Source: Escherichia phage WPEC3. Taken from it: DNA of 64,000 nt. The stretch lies in sequence record PV611058; one strand, 5' to 3'. Position numbers and translations under genes: made by a program. The notes beneath the pieces are model-generated. The model was not told the DNA's origin, searched no databases, and worked only from the letters and a program-made list of their open reading frames with translations. How positions within the stretch are numbered: position 1 is the stretch's first letter; every line of letters begins with the position of its first letter. Shown piece after piece: positions 27,209 through 47,988 of this stretch.

Positions 27209-27310
27209 GTACAGTTCTCCTTATATTCCTTCTATAGTACACCAGTACTGAAAGGTTGTCAAGGGTTTTCTTTTTGGGGTAAATATGATATAATGAATAA
27301 AGGAGGAAAT
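27209..27310. promoter_or_regulatory. divergent promoter region between the two arrays
   Basis: minus: TTGACA-N17-TATAGA plus SD; plus: TATAAT ... AGGAGG. Confidence 0.65.
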
Positions 27311-28459
27311 ATGTTACCTTTTGTTAGAATGTTTGATTATGGGAATGAAGCACCTACCAACTCTGGGCGTTTTAAAATATATTCCAGTGATTCTATGTAT
27401 CTTCATGATACTTATACTGACAAGTTGTATGCATCTTCTGCGACGAATTGGGGTACTGGTACAGGTGTAGCATCGAGTAAATTTATTCTTTGTGCGGAGA
27501 ATGTTAAACGAGTTCTATTGGAAGATAACAGTAGTGATTGTCAATTGTATGAAGAGAAAGGTACTGGAAAAGTTTTTATCACTGGTAACACGAAGGCATT
27601 CACTGGTGTAACTGATAGAAAAACTTTGTGGACGGACTGTACTACGTGGATAACATCAAGTGGTATTAATGTTTCTGATATAAAATACATGAGTAGTTTT
27701 TATGATATGAAGGTGAATTTGATAACAAACGATGGTACATTGTATTGTTGTGGAACTAACAATATATCGAACATATCATCATTTGGTGATGGCACAAACA
27801 TTAATTCTTTTAACACATTCAAAAGAGTAGATACTATAACTTCGGTTAAAAAGGCAGTTGGTAACATTTATTTGCGAGAAGATAATACTTTATGGGGTTG
27901 TGGTTTTAACTATTACTACCAGTTGGGCACGGGTAATCAAACTTCTATTACTGGGGTGACGATGATTTCTTCGGATGTTATAGATTTTAATGTAAGTTAT
28001 CAGAGTACATTTTTTATCAAATCGGATAATAATTTGTACGCTTGTGGTAAACAGTTCGGTGCACAATATGGGAACGAATTTGGTACAGGTGGTACTTCCT
28101 CTTCTACTGATATACAATATAAAACTCCCACATTATTGAGTGCAGGTGTTTATAGTTTATATACTTGTGTTGGTAACATGGCATCACATATAGTTAAAGG
28201 TGATGAAGTACTTTATGCATCTGGAAGCAACTCGTCTGGTCAATTAGGTGTTGGTAATAATAATAATCAGTACTCCTATACTCCTTCATATACTTCGTTT
28301 AATACCTCTTGTAATTTGGTACGCACCCCATCTGGTTCACTTATACTTACTGATACTGGAAAATTATATTATTGTGGCCTTGCAATAGTAGTAATGGGTG
28401 GTATTTCTGGACAGAACGTTCTTAATTATACAGAAGTCGATATGTCATTTTTGCAGTAA
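27311..28459 (+). CDS. RCC1-like beta-propeller protein, MLPF-leader family member 1 (382 aa)
   Basis: ATG after AGGAGG; MLPFVRMFDYGN leader; repeated G-x-N-x-x-GQLG-x-G motifs; terminator follows. Confidence 0.8.
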   Translation: MLPFVRMFDYGNEAPTNSGRFKIYSSDSMYLHDTYTDKLYASSATNWGTGTGVASSKFILCAENVKRVLLEDNSSDCQLYEEKGTGKVFITGNTKAFTGVTDRKTLWTDCTTWITSSGINVSDIKYMSSFYDMKVNLITNDGTLYCCGTNNISNISSFGDGTNINSFNTFKRVDTITSVKKAVGNIYLREDNTLWGCGFNYYYQLGTGNQTSITGVTMISSDVIDFNVSYQSTFFIKSDNNLYACGKQFGAQYGNEFGTGGTSSSTDIQYKTPTLLSAGVYSLYTCVGNMASHIVKGDEVLYASGSNSSGQLGVGNNNNQYSYTPSYTSFNTSCNLVRTPSGSLILTDTGKLYYCGLAIVVMGGISGQNVLNYTEVDMSFLQ

Positions 28460-28467
28460 ATTAATAT

Positions 28468-28493
28468 GCCAGTACTTGATACTGGCTTTTTTT
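28468..28493 (+). terminator. rho-independent terminator (array boundary exemplar)
   Basis: hairpin GCCAGTAC-ttga-TACTGGC plus T7; the same hairpin type follows most array genes. Confidence 0.8.
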
Positions 28494-28527
28494 GATTAAA
28501 TATAGTATAATGAATAAAGGAGGAAAT
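28494..28527 (+). promoter_or_regulatory. conserved array promoter/SD cassette (exemplar)
   Basis: GATTAAATATAG-TATAAT-GAATAA-AGGAGG-AAAT-ATG, near-identical in front of most array genes. Confidence 0.7.
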
Positions 28528-29637
28528 ATGTTACCTTTTGTAAGAATGGTTAAGTACGGGAATATTGCACCAGTACCGAAAAAAATAAAGAAAGTTATAG
28601 CAGGATATGATAATTTATATGTACTATATGGTGATGGTTCGCTATATGGTTGTGGAATCAATAACTATCAACAGTTAAATATTGATGGAACTGCTACACA
28701 AAATAATTGGGTACTAATTACCAATGGTGTTAGTAATGCATGGGCTGGTGGATACAATATTTTATATTTGAAAGAAGATAAATTTATAATGCACGGAACT
28801 AATGTCTCATTAGGTTTAGGAAATACTACAATTCCATTAGGTGGAGTAGATGTAACTTCTTCATTCCCAGATATCTCTAATATTAAAATGATATCCATTG
28901 GTTTTGATTCAATGCACTATGTTAGTGCTGATGGTACAACTGTATATGGAAGAGGTATGAACACAAATGGTTCTGTTGGTTCAGGTAGTACTTACTCACA
29001 GAGTACTTTCACTTCAGTACTGAATAATGGAACTAATCAGGTTATTGATATATTTGGTAACGTTAATAATACAGTGCTTCTAACATCGAATGGTGAGCTT
29101 CGAGCATGTGGGACAAGTGCTTATGGTTCTATAGGAAATGAAACTGGTAAGTGGACATCGTTTGGTTTAAAATTATCTGGCACTAAAATAATGGGTGGTA
29201 ATGGGTATAGTACGCTTGCATATACAAATTCGGGAATGTACCACTCAGGGTGGCAGTTAAATGGGGAACTAGGAAATGGTTTAGATACTAACGTACAGGT
29301 ATATCCATTTCAATTTAACTCTAAAACGATAGATAGCAAGATAGATAAAATTGCCAAATCATCATCTGGGTCATATGTTAACATGTACTCAACAACAGAA
29401 GGAAAGATATATACGACAGGTTCGTTTGGTAAAAACGGGTCAACTACTGCATTGAATTTGTTCACCAATACATTAACACTTATAAATTACAATCCAGATA
29501 CCGCCTCGTTGTATACGTGCACAAACTTCAGTGTTGTGTATGATGGTAATGAAACTATTGCTGTAAGTGGTAGTCCTACATATGTACCAGGGGGCGTTGC
29601 CGCTAATAGATGGACTACAATTCCATTACCCAAGTAA
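28528..29637 (+). CDS. RCC1-like beta-propeller protein, family member 2 (369 aa)
   Basis: MLPFVRMVKYGN leader; RCC1-like repeats; own SD and terminator. Confidence 0.8.
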   Translation: MLPFVRMVKYGNIAPVPKKIKKVIAGYDNLYVLYGDGSLYGCGINNYQQLNIDGTATQNNWVLITNGVSNAWAGGYNILYLKEDKFIMHGTNVSLGLGNTTIPLGGVDVTSSFPDISNIKMISIGFDSMHYVSADGTTVYGRGMNTNGSVGSGSTYSQSTFTSVLNNGTNQVIDIFGNVNNTVLLTSNGELRACGTSAYGSIGNETGKWTSFGLKLSGTKIMGGNGYSTLAYTNSGMYHSGWQLNGELGNGLDTNVQVYPFQFNSKTIDSKIDKIAKSSSGSYVNMYSTTEGKIYTTGSFGKNGSTTALNLFTNTLTLINYNPDTASLYTCTNFSVVYDGNETIAVSGSPTYVPGGVAANRWTTIPLPK

Positions 29638-46378: not shown

Positions 46379-46455
46379 GAGTACCTCAATTAAATCGCTG
46401 TAAAATTGTACATTATAAAATGATTAAATAAAGTATAACACAAGGAGATTTTATC

Positions 46456-47580
46456 ATGTTACCTTTCGTATTGTTATTTGATTATGGGAACGAAAAACAA
46501 GAAAGTTCTTATGATGTTAGTGTATATGGAAACAATAACTACATTTTAAATAAACAAACTGGAAACCTTTTTGCATCCGGTGCTGCGGCATTCATGGGTG
46601 ATAACACAGTTAAGTATTATATTACCCAAATAGAATCAAATGTTCATAGCTGTGAGATAGGTTTCCTATCATCATGGATAATTAAGAAGGACAAAACTGT
46701 TTTCATTTTAGGAAACAAAAGCAGTATAGGATTAACTGGTTCGACAACATCATGGTTCGAAATTACAAACTTATTTTCTGCTGTTCCTGAAATATGGGAC
46801 AACCTATTTGAATGTAAAGTTCAATTGGGATATAACTGCATACGTGTTATGACACCACTAGGATCAATCTATGCGATTGGTACAAACACTTATGGTGCAT
46901 TGGGTACTGGTACTACATCCTCATCCACTTCGTTCGTTAAAAGTGGTGCTGTGGATGCTGTACGCATGGAATCAACAGAACGTTCAGTGTTCTATCAAAA
47001 CAGTTCTGGACAATGGTTTGGATGTGGTGATAACACATATGGTATACTAGGTCTAGGAACTACCGCTAGTCGTGTAAACTCATACACCGCACCAGTATGG
47101 ACTAATGCAGAAGCTGTTAGCTTCTCTAACCGTGGGATCATATACAGCCTCAATGGTACTCTATACTCATGTGGTGACAAAGTTAATGGTCAGCTAGGGG
47201 ATGGATATACACAAAGCATAGACGCAGCCAGGAGCACACCATACACCATAGGAACCGCATTCCAAATTGGTAAGGCAATAACATCAGCTACACAAGCATC
47301 AGCCAACGTATTCATTGGTAAAGATAATAAGTTCTATGGTACTGGTAGTATTGCTGCTGGTATAAATGGTAGTACTAGTGCTGCATTAAGTAAAGTTACT
47401 GCGTTATCAGCAGCACTACCACCTGACATTACATACAATGATATTATAACATTCAATACTGGGACCGTAACTTTTATTCAAGCAAAAGGACAACTATATT
47501 ATGTTGGTAGAAGAACTTACATAGATAATAGTTCAGACGTTACCACACAGTTCAGTGTAATTGGTGGCTTAGATAATTAA
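46456..47580 (+). CDS. RCC1-like beta-propeller protein, family member 16 (374 aa)
   Basis: MLPFVLLFDYGN leader; SD AAGGAG; divergent upstream region. Confidence 0.8.
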   Translation: MLPFVLLFDYGNEKQESSYDVSVYGNNNYILNKQTGNLFASGAAAFMGDNTVKYYITQIESNVHSCEIGFLSSWIIKKDKTVFILGNKSSIGLTGSTTSWFEITNLFSAVPEIWDNLFECKVQLGYNCIRVMTPLGSIYAIGTNTYGALGTGTTSSSTSFVKSGAVDAVRMESTERSVFYQNSSGQWFGCGDNTYGILGLGTTASRVNSYTAPVWTNAEAVSFSNRGIIYSLNGTLYSCGDKVNGQLGDGYTQSIDAARSTPYTIGTAFQIGKAITSATQASANVFIGKDNKFYGTGSIAAGINGSTSAALSKVTALSAALPPDITYNDIITFNTGTVTFIQAKGQLYYVGRRTYIDNSSDVTTQFSVIGGLDN

Positions 47581-47586
47581 AATTAA

Positions 47587-47616
47587 TCCAGTACTATTAT
47601 AGTACTGGATTTTTTA
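47587..47616. terminator. bidirectional terminator at the convergent junction
   Basis: hairpin TCCAGTACT-attat-AGTACTGGA flanked by T-run (plus) and A-run. Confidence 0.75.
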
Positions 47617-47988
47617 TTATAACATACGTTTTTTACGAATAGTATTGTGGATATTTTTTAAGTAGTTCACACCTTTACACAACCCATAAAATACACCAGC
47701 ACATACACCAAATGCAGGTATCATACATGCAAACATCGTTATCAATTCCCACATCTCCATGCCATCTTGATTCGGTCCAAGGTCAAAGATAACAACCGAA
47801 ACCAAACCTGTGATACTTAGCATATAATATGCCATGAAGATAATAAAAGAAACAATACCAACATCAGAGCGAACTGAATTTAGCATATTATATACTGGGG
47901 TTACACAGAAGTAATACAATAACCAAATCAAAGAACCTAAACTAAACACAATAATAGTAATGATCGAAAATATTTCACGATAACTCAT
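47617..47988 (-). CDS. small 3-TM membrane protein family, member 1 (123 aa)
   Basis: ORF; three hydrophobic segments; basic C-terminal tail; SD AAGAGGA. Confidence 0.65.
   Translation of the reverse strand: MSYREIFSIITIIVFSLGSLIWLLYYFCVTPVYNMLNSVRSDVGIVSFIIFMAYYMLSITGLVSVVIFDLGPNQDGMEMWELITMFACMIPAFGVCAGVFYGLCKGVNYLKNIHNTIRKKRML

Follow-up and report, generated by a model that had tools for sequence, protein, structure and literature searches.

A tandem array of RCC1-like propeller genes with a shared modular N-terminal tag in an Asteriusvirus jumbo phage

The array and its control elements

Escherichia phage WPEC3 has a genome of the ~350-kb Asteriusvirus type (PBECO4/121Q/phAPEC6 group, Rak2-like jumbo phages), which is only distantly related to T4, and the T4-like context assumed in the earlier note is loose. 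The window (the whole 64-kb stretch of DNA that was analysed) contains exactly 16 in-frame MLPF leaders, all on the plus strand and within 27311-47580, and a 17th MLPF, at 31381, is out of frame and due to chance. This count bears out the description of sixteen plus-strand genes with the start MLPF(V/A)R(M/L)(F/V)(D/K)YGN, except for the variants in m05 (...KFGN, Y10 to F) and m16 (R6 to L).

The unbroken members encode products of 369-449 aa. RCC1-like products are encoded by m01 (27311-28459, 382 aa, a propeller with the leader MLPFVRMFDYGN), m02 (28528-29637, 369 aa, leader MLPFVRMVKYGN), m03 (29709-30890, 393 aa), m04 (30966-32096, 376 aa), m09 (36990-38144, 384 aa), m10 (38223-39413, 396 aa), m11 (39486-40673, 395 aa), and m15 (44559-45695, 378 aa). 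They are joined by m05 (32107-33309, 400 aa, leader MLPFARMVKFGN), m06 (33318-34427, 369 aa), m07 (34498-35667, 389 aa), m12 (40726-41877, 383 aa), m14 (43139-44488, 449 aa), the most divergent member of the array, and m16 (46456-47580, 374 aa, leader MLPFVLLFDYGN), an outlying member with RCC1 repeats scoring 50.2 bits.

Two of the 16 genes are frameshifted, as had been claimed. In m08 (35740-36919), the leader ORF of 59 aa ends at a stop codon at 35917-35919, and the +1 frame carries the RCC1-like body as an open stretch of 349 codons (~35870 to 36919), a state that recurs in Ecwhy_1 and PBECO4. In m13 (41949-43128), an N-terminal part of 264 aa (41949-42743) is followed by a C-terminal part of 132 codons in the +1 frame (42730-43128), which restores the GQLGNG motif, and phage vB_Ec-M-J has an intact orthologue of 392 aa. 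Contrary to what had been stated, the array is not strictly consecutive, because a minus-strand ORF of 216 aa (45728-46378; phrog_34359, unknown function) separates m15 from m16. This ORF lies outside the propeller family, and in phAPEC6 (gp011c) and PBECO4 (gp297) the array ends distally at a homologue of comparable length and position.

The predicted divergent control region was found upstream of m01 (27209-27310), with promoters on both strands. The minus-strand promoter is sigma70-like (TTGACA-17-TACTAT, 27262-27234) and serves small upstream genes, and the plus strand carries a late-type promoter, gggTAAATATGATATAAT, at 27280, together with the RBS of m01. The cassette between m01 and m02 (28460-28527) is formed by the hairpin GCCAGTACTTGATACTGGC with a T-run (28468-28486), the promoter TAAATATAGTATAAT (28497), and an RBS. 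Plus-strand cassettes with a terminator and a promoter, respectively, follow m02 (29638-29708; 29642-29664, and TAAATA-N3-TATAAT at 29677), m03 (30891-30965; 30893-30922, and the variant ttgTAAATACATTATAAT at 30930), m06 (34428-34497; 34434-34452 and 34466), m07 (35668-35739; 35675-35693 and 35708), m08 (36920-36989; 36924-36949 and 36959), m09 (38145-38222; 38150-38177 and 38191), m10 (39414-39485; 39421-39439 and 39455), m11 (40674-40725; 40662-40680, overlapping the end of m11, and 40695), m12 (41878-41948; 41884-41902, and the variant TAAATATAGTATAAC), and m14 (44489-44558; 44495-44513, and the variant TAAATATAGTATAAA).

Most members are separate transcription units, as proposed, but m05, m06, and m14 have no cassette of their own and depend on coupling to the preceding gene; m05 follows a 10-nt gap with an RBS only, and the start of m06 is placed inside the end of m05 (coordinates: m05 end 33309, m06 start 33318). 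A bidirectional terminator hairpin (45699-45723, within 45696-45727) separates m15 from the minus-strand ORF that converges on it, and the region before m16 (46379-46455) has the promoter variant gatTAAATAAAGTATAAC and an RBS. The palindrome TCCAGTACTATTATAGTACTGGA, flanked by runs of A and T, occupies the end of the array (47581-47616) and is the expected convergent terminator (47588-47616), common to the array and a minus-strand gene ending at 47617.

The motif TAAATA-N3/4-TATAAT precedes 13/16 members, and was found nowhere else in the 64-kb window. The same layout occurs upstream of the MCP, tail-fibre, and baseplate genes of phage CBB, and the intergenic cassettes resemble the T4-type late promoters of this phage group, a likeness of motif which suggests that the array would be expressed late.

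A conserved tag on variable bodies

The leader is near-invariant among the members of the array, whereas the identity of their bodies is only 23-44%. The curated Pfam threshold for RCC1/RCC1_2 is passed by 13/16 members; m06 and m15 fall 1-2 bits short (in m15, RCC1_2 scores 19.6 bits against a threshold of 22), and m14 has no Pfam match, but matches phrog_4219. The AF2 model of m12 shows an RCC1-like propeller of seven blades over residues 22-383, preceded by a disordered leader (1-11), and the RCC1-like fold claimed by the earlier note, which had called for structure prediction and a fold search, stands (AF2 pLDDT 91.5; Foldseek matches to UVR8, RPGR, HERC2-RLD, and RCC1, TM ~0.74). In m14, AF2 predicts RCC1-like blades with a low-confidence insertion of ~100 aa (295-396) and an unstructured leader.

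The leader has the consensus M-[L/I]-P-F-x-R-h-h-x-Y-[G/A]-N over 12 N-terminal residues. Among 137 unique N-termini, P3, F4, and N12 are invariant and R6, Y10, and G11 are conserved in at least 94%, these being the positions fixed by the selecting pattern, and the information content falls below 1 bit beyond residue ~15. In a divergent phage of 361 kb (L003), all 14 genes of the syntenic array bear the tag, including those for a Kelch propeller, a Laminin_G_3 protein, a Gly_rich_2 protein, and a phrog_6011 "virion structural protein". In CBB, the tag is found on CBB_247, 536, 537, and 548-554, of which the first three are isolated genes far from any array. The tag thus occurs on at least four folds across the related jumbo phages, and is a modular element, separate from the propeller fold. 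The suggestion that the leader might be the closing strand of the propeller does not hold, given that it heads non-propeller folds in relatives and that, in both AF2 models (m12 and m14), residues 1-11 have a pLDDT <50 and no secondary structure precedes residue 22; the alternative suggestion of a targeting signal is supported.

Across genera, the leader peptide is conserved, whereas its codons and the DNA upstream diverge, and L003 and CBB show synonymous variation in the codons of the leader; selection thus acts at the protein level. In the present genome, TTA, CCT, and GGG are each used in 16/16 leaders (GGG vs 11% in the gene bodies, CCT vs 36%), and two linked haplotypes, TTTGATTAT and GTTAAGTAC, are found. 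The leader alleles are decoupled from the phylogeny of the bodies (m01 vs gp549; m14 vs L034), as in the case of m14, whose orthologue in L034 bears the other allele. The invariance of the leader here is thus in part the product of concerted evolution rather than of selection on the peptide, because the leaders are homogenised at the DNA level as well.

Turnover and presence in virions

The closest relative, Ecwhy_1, is 98.5% identical in the flanks of the array, but has 12 members rather than 16. The members common to the two genomes are 96-100% identical, and the best orthologues of the additional members lie in other phages. The m05 gene is 94% identical to its counterpart in PBECO4 and only 72% to that in Ecwhy_1, m07 is missing from Ecwhy_1, and m04 lacks a close orthologue in each of Ecwhy_1, phAPEC6, and PBECO4, but is represented in the metagenome loci L032/L039.

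The earlier note knew of no described T4-like phage function of this kind, a view that is not supported: dozens of GenBank records annotate the family, usually as "regulator of chromosome condensation", and it has its own PHROG and has been published. The paralogues were discussed, and detected in virions, in CBB in 2017 and phAPEC6 in 2020 (PMC5259590, PMC7247149). The shared leader, unlike the array of paralogues, has not been described in the literature. The possibility that the family is a known structural module of conserved order holds in part, since it is a known virion-associated family, but neither its gene content nor its order is conserved.

In the published mass spectrometry (MS) data, in which the lists include probable contaminants (topoisomerase, PhoH, ClpP), 8/10 tagged proteins of CBB are among the 55/554 ORFs seen in virions (hypergeometric p = 2e-7), and 8 of the 13-15 tagged proteins of phAPEC6, with low peptide counts (1-5), are among the 62/551 detected (p ~1e-5 to 6e-5) (PMC5259590, PMC7247149). 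The tag and detection in virions are thus statistically linked, which supports the virion-associated role listed among the initial options. The phAPEC6 proteins detected include gp549 (94.5% identical to m01), gp010 (91% to m07), gp005 (93% to m12), and gp007, an N-terminal fragment orthologous to m13. MS has also confirmed GAP32 gp001 as a structural protein, which brings to three (CBB, phAPEC6, GAP32) the phages with tagged proteins in their virions. The tryptic peptides of the CBB virion table include YANVIVEYATK (CBB_548 residues 10-20, after K9) and LFEYANVIIPPNYK (CBB_536 residues 7-20, after R6), which span the tag; the tag is therefore not cleaved off, and is retained on the mature protein.

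Interpretation and comparison with known systems

The presence of the tag on unrelated folds, together with the detection of tagged proteins in virions, indicates that it probably mounts interchangeable binding modules. Each gene encodes the 12-residue tag, a short linker rich in Pro, and a binding domain that is globular and beta-rich; in the 64-kb window, this domain is always an RCC1-like seven-bladed propeller. The retained tag is most likely a docking peptide for a common putative acceptor in the particle, by which any tagged protein would be mounted on the virion. The modules would probably sit on the outside of the particle and serve as a diverse group of adhesins for host surfaces; fibres, "hairs", the baseplate, and the capsid surface are the candidate sites, with the unexplained "hairy" fibres as one possibility. 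The repertoire would change as whole cassettes are gained, lost, or exchanged, a process that the conserved terminator-promoter-RBS-leader junctions may facilitate. That the array is a late-expressed library of tag-docked virion binding modules, probably external adhesins, is the reading we favour, with some reserve.

Packaging inside the head is its main rival, although we consider it unlikely. The tag would then be a capsid-targeting signal, and the proteins would lie within the head, perhaps making up the inner body, and may be ejected into the host as effectors or anti-defence binders. The design is the same as that of the T4 internal proteins, which are diverse and united only by a short capsid targeting sequence at the N-terminus (PMC3012670). 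T4-type head genes are present, a gp21-like prohead protease (CBB_255) among them, the inner body of 121Q and phAPEC6 would equally need a targeting signal, the array is hypervariable, like the T-even internal-protein loci, and detection in virions fits this location too. The T4 sequence is, however, removed by the prohead protease, whereas the present tag is kept in mature virions and has no conserved Glu cleavage site in the 137 N-termini. The proteins are also large (25-50 kDa) and near-neutral, rather than small, basic, and DNA-associated, their beta-propeller and lectin folds are typical of surface recognition, and a seven-bladed propeller would have to unfold to pass through the tail tube. 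Less probable still is a leader with no function as a peptide, as merely the 5' end of a repeated cassette, kept uniform by gene conversion or constraints on translation initiation, with the virion signal due to abundant late proteins contaminating the preparations. The invariant synonymous sites, the linked haplotypes, and the decoupled alleles would all fit, but the leader persists in m05, m06, and m14 without a cassette, in the isolated CBB genes, and across genera despite the divergence of codons and upstream DNA, and the enrichment in virions is highly significant in phages from separate papers.

Very improbable, in turn, is a set of soluble, BLIP-II-like intracellular binders, such as anti-defence decoys or inhibitors, that are no part of the virion. 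None of the present results supports the decoy idea of the earlier note. The RCC1/BLIP-II superfamily does include a tight protein inhibitor, and the diversification and rapid turnover of the paralogues would suit an arms race; against this, the promoter appears to be of the late rather than the early type, tagged proteins occur in the virions of three phages, and BLIP-II is absent from the top 50 PDB fold matches of Foldseek. The least credible reading is the published speculation that these proteins condense DNA and organise the packaged genome, which draws on the name transferred from eukaryotic RCC1 (PMC7247149), on virion association, and on the existence of the inner body. The array proteins, with ~45% Gly/Ser/Thr/Asn/Tyr, have a net charge of -5 to +5 and a pI of 5.1-9.0, and there is therefore no electrostatic basis for DNA binding. 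Eukaryotic RCC1 is a Ran exchange factor on nucleosomes, and bacteria have neither Ran nor nucleosomes. The tag is also borne by proteins with no link to chromatin (Kelch, lectin-like, and glycine-rich), and gene content differs among near-identical phages, which would be unexpected in a core packaging function; the "DNA condensation" label is unsupported.

Externally displayed, tag-docked modules have several parallels. In phages Littlefix and PollyC, RCC1-like propellers form part of tail-fibre proteins, cellular homologues join RCC1 repeats to TIG, PKD, or pilin-type surface domains, and an association with fibres has been described for the LamG/ConA lectins of jumbo phages (PMC7824862). 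Against such a role, the cargo of the array is globular and presumably monomeric, whereas classical phage fibres and spikes are trimeric. In Klebsiella podophages, interchangeable RBP2 modules are attached to the virion through a conserved N-terminal peptide (PMC13352976), and the tailspike array of Rak2, in which short N-termini are common within two groups, represents a precedent for a tagged array.

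The array and its propeller proteins

Exactly 16 in-frame leaders of the MLPF type are found in the window, all on the plus strand and all within positions 27311-47580, which agrees with the number of leader-bearing genes given in the earlier note. These genes (m01 to m16) encode products of 369-449 aa, the bodies of which are 23-44% identical in pairwise comparisons. The array is consecutive in that the 16 plus-strand genes lie in tandem, but it is interrupted before the last member by a minus-strand ORF of 216 aa (45728-46378), assigned to phrog_34359, with no Pfam match. Homologues comparable in size and placement are phAPEC6 gp011c, PBECO4 gp297, Ecwhy1_528, and 121Q_233; in phAPEC6 and PBECO4 it is this ORF that closes the array distally, so that m16 falls outside the limit that is usual. 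The first 36 nt are near-identical across the array genes and fall into two haplotypes, which end in GTT AGA ATG TTT GAT TAT GGG AAT (VRMFDYGN) and GCA AGA ATG GTT AAG TAC GGG AAT (ARMVKYGN). The leader pattern MLPF(V/A)R(M/L)(F/V)(D/K)YGN, thought to be common to all 16 genes, is followed by most of them, except for m16 and m05, which deviate at one position each. A separate intergenic cassette, with terminator and promoter, is missing in front of three members (m05, m06, and m14), and two (m08 and m13) are frameshifted, as reported previously.

The phage had been taken for a T4-like one. The window matches the ~350-kb Asteriusvirus jumbo coliphages PBECO4, 121Q, phAPEC6, G17, and Ecwhy_1 (megablast), which are only distant kin of T4. 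Nor is the array without a known counterpart, given that it is annotated in these relatives, under product names such as "regulator of chromosome condensation", "putative DNA condensation protein", "HERC1", and "RPGR", and is treated in two papers. Its members are 81-100% identical to single members in phAPEC6 (gp001-010 and gp549-551), 121Q (gp234-248), PBECO4 (gp286-296), and GAP32 (gp001), within phrog_4219. The array belongs to the same gene family and occupies the same locus as the known RCC1-like paralogues of the Asteriusvirus and Rak2-like phages, from which it differs in its size, with 16 members versus 9-15 leader-bearing starts in the relatives examined, and in the presence of m04 and m14, which have no close orthologue in those relatives. 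The paper on phage CBB refers to multiple RCC1 copies in 121Q and PBECO4, and to GAP32 gp001 as a structural protein confirmed by mass spectrometry (PMC5259590). That on phAPEC6 describes "eleven similar RCC1-like proteins" and eight array proteins in the virions, and speculates on the organization of the DNA in the inner body (PMC7247149). Both accounts derive the RCC1/DNA-condensation homologues from tandem duplication (PMC5259590, PMC7247149). The array as such is therefore already known.

The prediction of an RCC1-like seven-bladed propeller is borne out by modeling and a fold search. The AlphaFold2 model of m12, built from a 19-sequence family alignment, has a pLDDT of 91.5 and a pTM of 0.88, and its matches in the PDB (Foldseek) are UVR8, RPGR, the HERC1/2 RLDs, and RCC1 (E 1e-15 to 1e-21, TM 0.63-0.76). 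The top 50 matches are all eukaryotic RLD/UVR8-type propellers, with BLIP-II absent from among them. In Pfam, 13 of the 16 members score above the gathering thresholds of PF00415 (RCC1) or PF13540 (RCC1_2), while the scores of m06 (21.0 bits) and m15 (19.6) are slightly short of the 22 required. Member m14 has no Pfam match and is assigned to phrog_4219 at E = 2.5e-15; its AlphaFold2 model is moderate (pLDDT 63.5), with an insertion of ~100 aa left unmodeled. In both models, residues 1-11 have a pLDDT below 50, and no secondary structure precedes residue 22. The leader had also been read as a possible closing ("velcro") strand of the propeller, a reading that has to be abandoned, given that the leader is disordered in both models and also heads Kelch, LamG, and glycine-rich proteins.

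The array proteins have a net charge of -5 to +5 and a pI of 5.1-9.0, with ~45% G/S/T/N/Y, and no basic N-terminal tail was found in the charge analysis. The basic tail or loops and the Ran exchange of chromosome condensation thus appear to have no equivalent in these sequences and, to our knowledge, Ran and nucleosomes are absent from bacteria. As the proteins are nearly uncharged, there is no basis for DNA condensation, a role that was rejected on the strength of this near-neutrality together with the presence of the same leader on unrelated folds. The "DNA condensation" names, which the sequences do not seem to support, probably represent a widespread functional mis-annotation, and their correction follows from the analysis of the leader, referred to here as the tag.

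A modular tag retained in the virion

The most divergent leader-bearing homologue (P0006), which is 42% identical to m12, comes from the contig of a 361-kb metagenomic phage. This contig has a syntenic array of 14 genes, all 14 of which start with MIPF(A/V/T)(R/K)hhxY(G/A)N. Four of these genes encode proteins other than RCC1, namely a Kelch propeller, a Laminin_G_3/ConA-like protein, a Gly_rich_2 protein, and a phrog_6011 "virion structural protein". When IMG/VR and a metagenome collection were searched with a degenerate DNA pattern of the tag, matches were found almost only in jumbo-phage contigs of 348-378 kb, usually many per contig, and included a CBB contig at 100% identity (megablast). 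Phage CBB has ten tagged genes (CBB_247, 536, 537, and 548-554), with LamG-like, Kelch, or unassigned folds. A tagged glycine-rich protein is also present in the arrays of 121Q and phAPEC6, without annotation in the latter. The phAPEC6 gene (MK817115.1, 7325-8059) encodes 244 aa, with an MLPF leader and a glycine-rich body like those at L006:-5234 in 121Q and at L003:3411-4214 in the 361-kb phage, and across its glycine-rich region the annotated gp004 (7716-8018) seems to have been called in the wrong frame.

The cargo of the tag therefore includes RCC1, Kelch, LamG, glycine-rich, and unassigned folds. No beta-helix or depolymerase domain is present in any of the tagged proteins scanned, and no tagged depolymerase or other diagnostic cargo was found in IMG/VR and the metagenomes, where the size classes of the cargo, judged by size rather than scanned ORF by ORF, fit the RCC1, Kelch, LamG-like, and glycine-rich tagged proteins. 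Across 137 unique N-termini, the consensus of the tag is M-[L/I]-P-F-[small]-R-[M/I/L/V]-[V/L/F/I/M]-[polar]-Y-[G/A]-N, followed by a weak [I/K/T/V]-[A/V/I]-P, after which the information falls below 1 bit. These N-termini were gathered with a pattern that fixed M, P, F, and N, and the same invariance is seen in sets defined by position rather than by pattern, that is, the window, the array of the 361-kb phage, and CBB_548-554. The leader codons in the latter two phages vary synonymously (CCA/CCT/CCG, GGA/GGG/GGT, and AGA/AGG/CGA), which indicates that it is the peptide that is under selection.

The proposed association with the virion is supported by mass spectrometry in two phages. In CBB, where 55 of the 554 ORFs were detected by virion ESI-MS/MS, these included eight of the ten tagged proteins (247, 536, 537, 548, 549, 551, 552, and 553), each with 2-8 peptides and a coverage of 9.5-50.7% (hypergeometric p = 2e-7). 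Five of the six MS-detected structural proteins listed by the CBB authors as having no GAP32 gene are tagged. In phAPEC6, the 62 of 551 ORFs detected in the virion include the leader-bearing gp003, 005, 006, 007, 009, 010, 549, and 551, an enrichment of p = 1e-5 to 6e-5, varying with the number of tagged genes counted. The link between the tag and incorporation into the virion is a statistical association (p = 2e-7 in CBB). All ten tagged genes of CBB (KU574722.1, loci L027-L029) lie on the minus strand, which holds only 34 of the 554 ORFs of this genome (PMC5259590), so that the inversion of the tagged genes relative to their neighbors, as in the window, is conserved across genera.

Two peptides in the CBB virion table span part of the tag: YANVIVEYATK follows a K and covers residues 10-20 of CBB_548, and LFEYANVIIPPNYK follows an R and covers residues 7-20 of CBB_536. 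At least from R6 or K9 on, the tag is therefore still present in the mature virion proteins; the six-residue tryptic peptide MLPFxR is absent from the same table. The targeting sequence of T4 is cleaved off in the prohead by the prohead protease. No conserved Glu was found within or just after the tag in the 137 N-termini, and a cleaved targeting propeptide of the T4 type is ruled out by the tag-spanning peptides in the virions. The earlier suggestion of a targeting signal is supported, in that the leader is modular, sits on several unrelated folds, and stays in the virions.

Expression, turnover, and surroundings of the array

The element TAAATA-N3-TATAA(T/C/A) is found ~25 nt before the ATG in 13 of the 16 array genes, and a relaxed form, TAAATA-N(3-5)-TAnA[A/C/T]T, matches ten array genes and nowhere else in the 64-kb window. 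Terminator hairpins (GCCAGTACT...AGTACTGGC), followed by a T-run, are found after most members, and 28 terminator-like sites were recovered by the scan, versus 7.3 +/- 3.1 expected. Classical sigma70 promoters were also considered and rejected, as such sites were not enriched in a generic scan (94, versus 104.8 expected) and the conserved element is TAAATA-N3-TATAAT. In CBB, which encodes a late sigma factor, the late structural genes (MCP, the tail fiber CBB_260, and the baseplate wedge CBB_237) have (T/x)ATAAATA 25-45 nt upstream of the ATG, and several late genes have the same bipartite layout, such as TAAATAtttcTATAAT. Given this resemblance, the array appears, from its upstream motifs, to use the T4-type late promoter of the group.

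The synonymous sites of the leader are uniform within the window, with GGG in 16/16 leaders versus 11% of the Gly codons of the bodies, CCT in 16/16 versus 36%, and TTA in 16/16 versus 45%. The alleles of the leader are also decoupled from the phylogeny of the body, as in m01, which has VRMFDYGN where its 94.5%-identical orthologue gp549 has ARMIKYGN, and in m14, with VRLFDYGN versus ARMVKYGN in its orthologue at a metagenome locus (L034). Together, these features indicate that the leader and the upstream cassette behave as a tract of recombination or gene conversion, an effect that acts on top of the constraint on the leader at the level of the peptide.

The flanks of the array are 98-99% identical to those of the relatives, and the closest phage, Ecwhy_1, has 12 members versus the 16 of the window. 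The shared members are 96-100% identical, except for m05 (72%), which is 94% identical to PBECO4. The extra members are m04, m07, m13, and m14, with the best matches of m07 and m13 in phAPEC6, and those of m04 and m14 in metagenome loci. Purifying selection of the ordinary kind acts on single orthologues (dN/dS 0.17-0.29) and, together with the differences in gene content, this indicates that whole cassettes are exchanged, and that point diversification is not the source of the diversity.

The two frameshifted members, m08 (35740-36919) and m13 (41949-43128), both keep long open bodies in the +1 frame, and the predicted trans-frame junctions are ...GAQVV-GQLGNGITTNTNK in m13 and ...LYMRG-GNQSAK in m08. 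The C-part of m13 (132 codons) has no stops or indels, with a dN/dS of 0.21 at a dS of 0.63 versus phAPEC6. Comparison within the phAPEC6 lineage shows a single-nucleotide difference over its 396 nt, as opposed to 30 differing codons in the N-part. The orthologue of the N-fragment, gp007, was detected in the phAPEC6 virions. A programmed +1 frameshift at "CGG-A" was attractive at first, given that the site is common to the orthologues, and because of the dN/dS of the C-part. This candidate was downgraded because an intact 392-aa orthologue of m13 exists in vB_Ec-M-J, because the 1-nt change in length sits in a hypervariable 6-nt patch, and because "CGG" is merely the out-of-frame reading of xxC-GGx; no slippery site was found at the m13 frameshift. 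The conservation of the C-part within the lineage could reflect recombination, and the sequences are compatible with either recoding or a recent, tolerated truncation. In 121Q (L006, minus-strand start 8486), a 4-nt tandem duplication (GGATGGATGG) cuts one array member short at 68 aa; this is a plain frameshift, unlike that of m13, and indicates that array members are sometimes simply inactivated.

Other features lie on either side of the array. Directly upstream (22806-27208, minus strand) are ~20 small ORFs of 59-78 aa with a common N-terminal M..(H)KE(Y/F)Y..L motif, which may correspond to the array of ">30 very similar genes" described in 121Q (PMC5646251). A drop in GC from 0.39 to 0.34 and a flip of the GC skew to positive at ~22 kb coincide with this family, though the genes are on the minus strand. 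Directly downstream (47617-50056, minus strand) are seven consecutive small hydrophobic ORFs of 104-123 aa, probably membrane proteins, with no pairwise BLAST similarity among them at E < 1e-4; CBB_539-546, in the matching position, are annotated as "putative membrane protein". Further on (51316-52866, minus strand), a 516-aa protein has six internal repeats of ~85 aa, each with VCIIDPVYGEFWQ(T/E)P..H(L/I)(K/R)G.GNP.

Proposed docking in the particle and known incorporation peptides

The types of cargo suggest, by analogy, that the tagged proteins may be involved in surface recognition. In jumbo phages, LamG/ConA lectins are associated with fibers and other virion components (PMC7824862). Cellular homologues join RCC1 repeats with TIG, PKD, Listeria-Bacteroides-repeat, or pilin-type domains. 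All three phages of the group reported to have long hair-like fibers on the tail and capsid (121Q, phAPEC6, and CBB) encode at least 10 tagged proteins, a correlation only; GAP32 also has tagged genes, and hairs are not described for it in the literature examined.

In the mechanism proposed here, the tag would stay on the mature protein as a docking peptide and bring interchangeable binding modules to one acceptor in the particle, where the modules would probably be displayed externally. In its broadest form, the proposal is that the tag is a general, transplantable virion-incorporation signal of the Rak2-like jumbo phages (Asteriusvirus, Mimasvirus, and metagenomic relatives), which docks any cargo on one acceptor, with the modules being the tips or constituents of the "hairy" appendages of 121Q, phAPEC6, and CBB; we put this forward tentatively, as a somewhat doubtful reading. 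If correct, the adsorption range of each phage would be set by a swappable library of 7-16 adhesins, and proteins of any kind could be displayed on jumbo phage particles by means of the tag. Should it be sufficient for incorporation, the tag would also serve, at its very small size, as a display or packaging signal in the engineering of large phage particles. Rak2-like jumbo phages have been proposed for therapy, and their hair-like fibers and inner body are conspicuous virion features without assigned proteins. The retained tag provides a common handle on 11-16 "DNA condensation" paralogues, and bears on the hairs or inner body, the number of RCC1 genes, and the host range.

The main rival explanation is that the tagged proteins are internal, perhaps located in the inner body. 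The T4 internal proteins (IPI, IPII, and IPIII, and the polymorphic T-even set) have a capsid targeting sequence (PMC3012670) of a similar design, in which the conserved N-terminal ~10 residues are the sole feature common to a diverse, hypervariable packaged set. The tag is likewise a short N-terminal peptide common to unrelated virion proteins. The T4 proteins, however, are small, basic, and embedded in DNA, whereas the cargo of the tag is of 25-50 kDa, near-neutral, and of surface-binding folds, with no removal at a conserved Glu.

External display is favored over this rival by analogy with two other systems, that is, the closer fit to the KP32-type RBP2 docking peptides of Klebsiella podophages, and the group-specific N-termini shared by the tailspikes of Rak2. 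The multi-tailspike arrays of Rak2, K64-1, and phiKp24 (Alcyoneusvirus) form hyperbranched fibers (PMC9700779) and, within the same wider clade, are also tandem virion genes with diverse bodies and group-specific shared N-termini. Their products are tailspikes or depolymerases of 570-1113 aa, with N-terminal peptides that differ from the tag: in Rak2 (JQ513383.1, 22765-45683), gp526/527/529/530 start with M.N.(L)IQPKGSVSKE, and gp531-534 with MSLSNLSSSN..G.F. Positional equivalence of the two arrays was not supported, as the Rak2 cluster has an nrdD/nrdG neighborhood, rather than the denV side, and no MLPF tag. Outside the clade, and again pointing to surface recognition, an RCC1-like propeller is found in tail-fiber proteins, i.e., the "tail fiber protein" of Littlefix and the "T7 tail fibre N-terminal domain-containing protein" of PollyC (Pseudomonas phages), and gp40 of the Salmonella phage PVP-SE1. 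The fold is the same (Foldseek E 1e-15 to 1e-18), but these propellers are covalently fused to a fiber or anchor domain, such as the T7 tail-fiber N-terminal domain, whereas the proteins of the window are free-standing, with only the 12-aa tag.

A search of the literature on Asteriusvirus, Rak2, CBB, phAPEC6, and 121Q, and of jumbo-phage reviews, found no account of the leader, of the non-RCC1 proteins that carry it, of its persistence in the particles, or of the late-promoter cassette. Within an array that is known, the tag system is a new variety of the known N-terminal virion-incorporation peptides. In the KP32-type system, a short N-terminal peptide common to otherwise unrelated cargo lies outside the cargo fold and stays in the particle, as does the tag, which is disordered in the AlphaFold2 models, outside the fold, present on multiple folds, and retained in virions. 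Incorporation depends on the KP32-type peptide, for which a branching domain is the docking site, and foreign cargo can be equipped with it (PMC13352976). This peptide has ~29 aa, versus the 12 of the tag, with no sequence resemblance seen between them, and its cargo is trimeric depolymerase tailspikes, one or two per phage, rather than 7-16 globular propeller or lectin modules per genome. Given that the tag is retained and has no conserved Glu, and that its cargo is large, neutral, and of surface type, it nevertheless fits the KP32-type RBP2 more closely than the internal proteins of T4.
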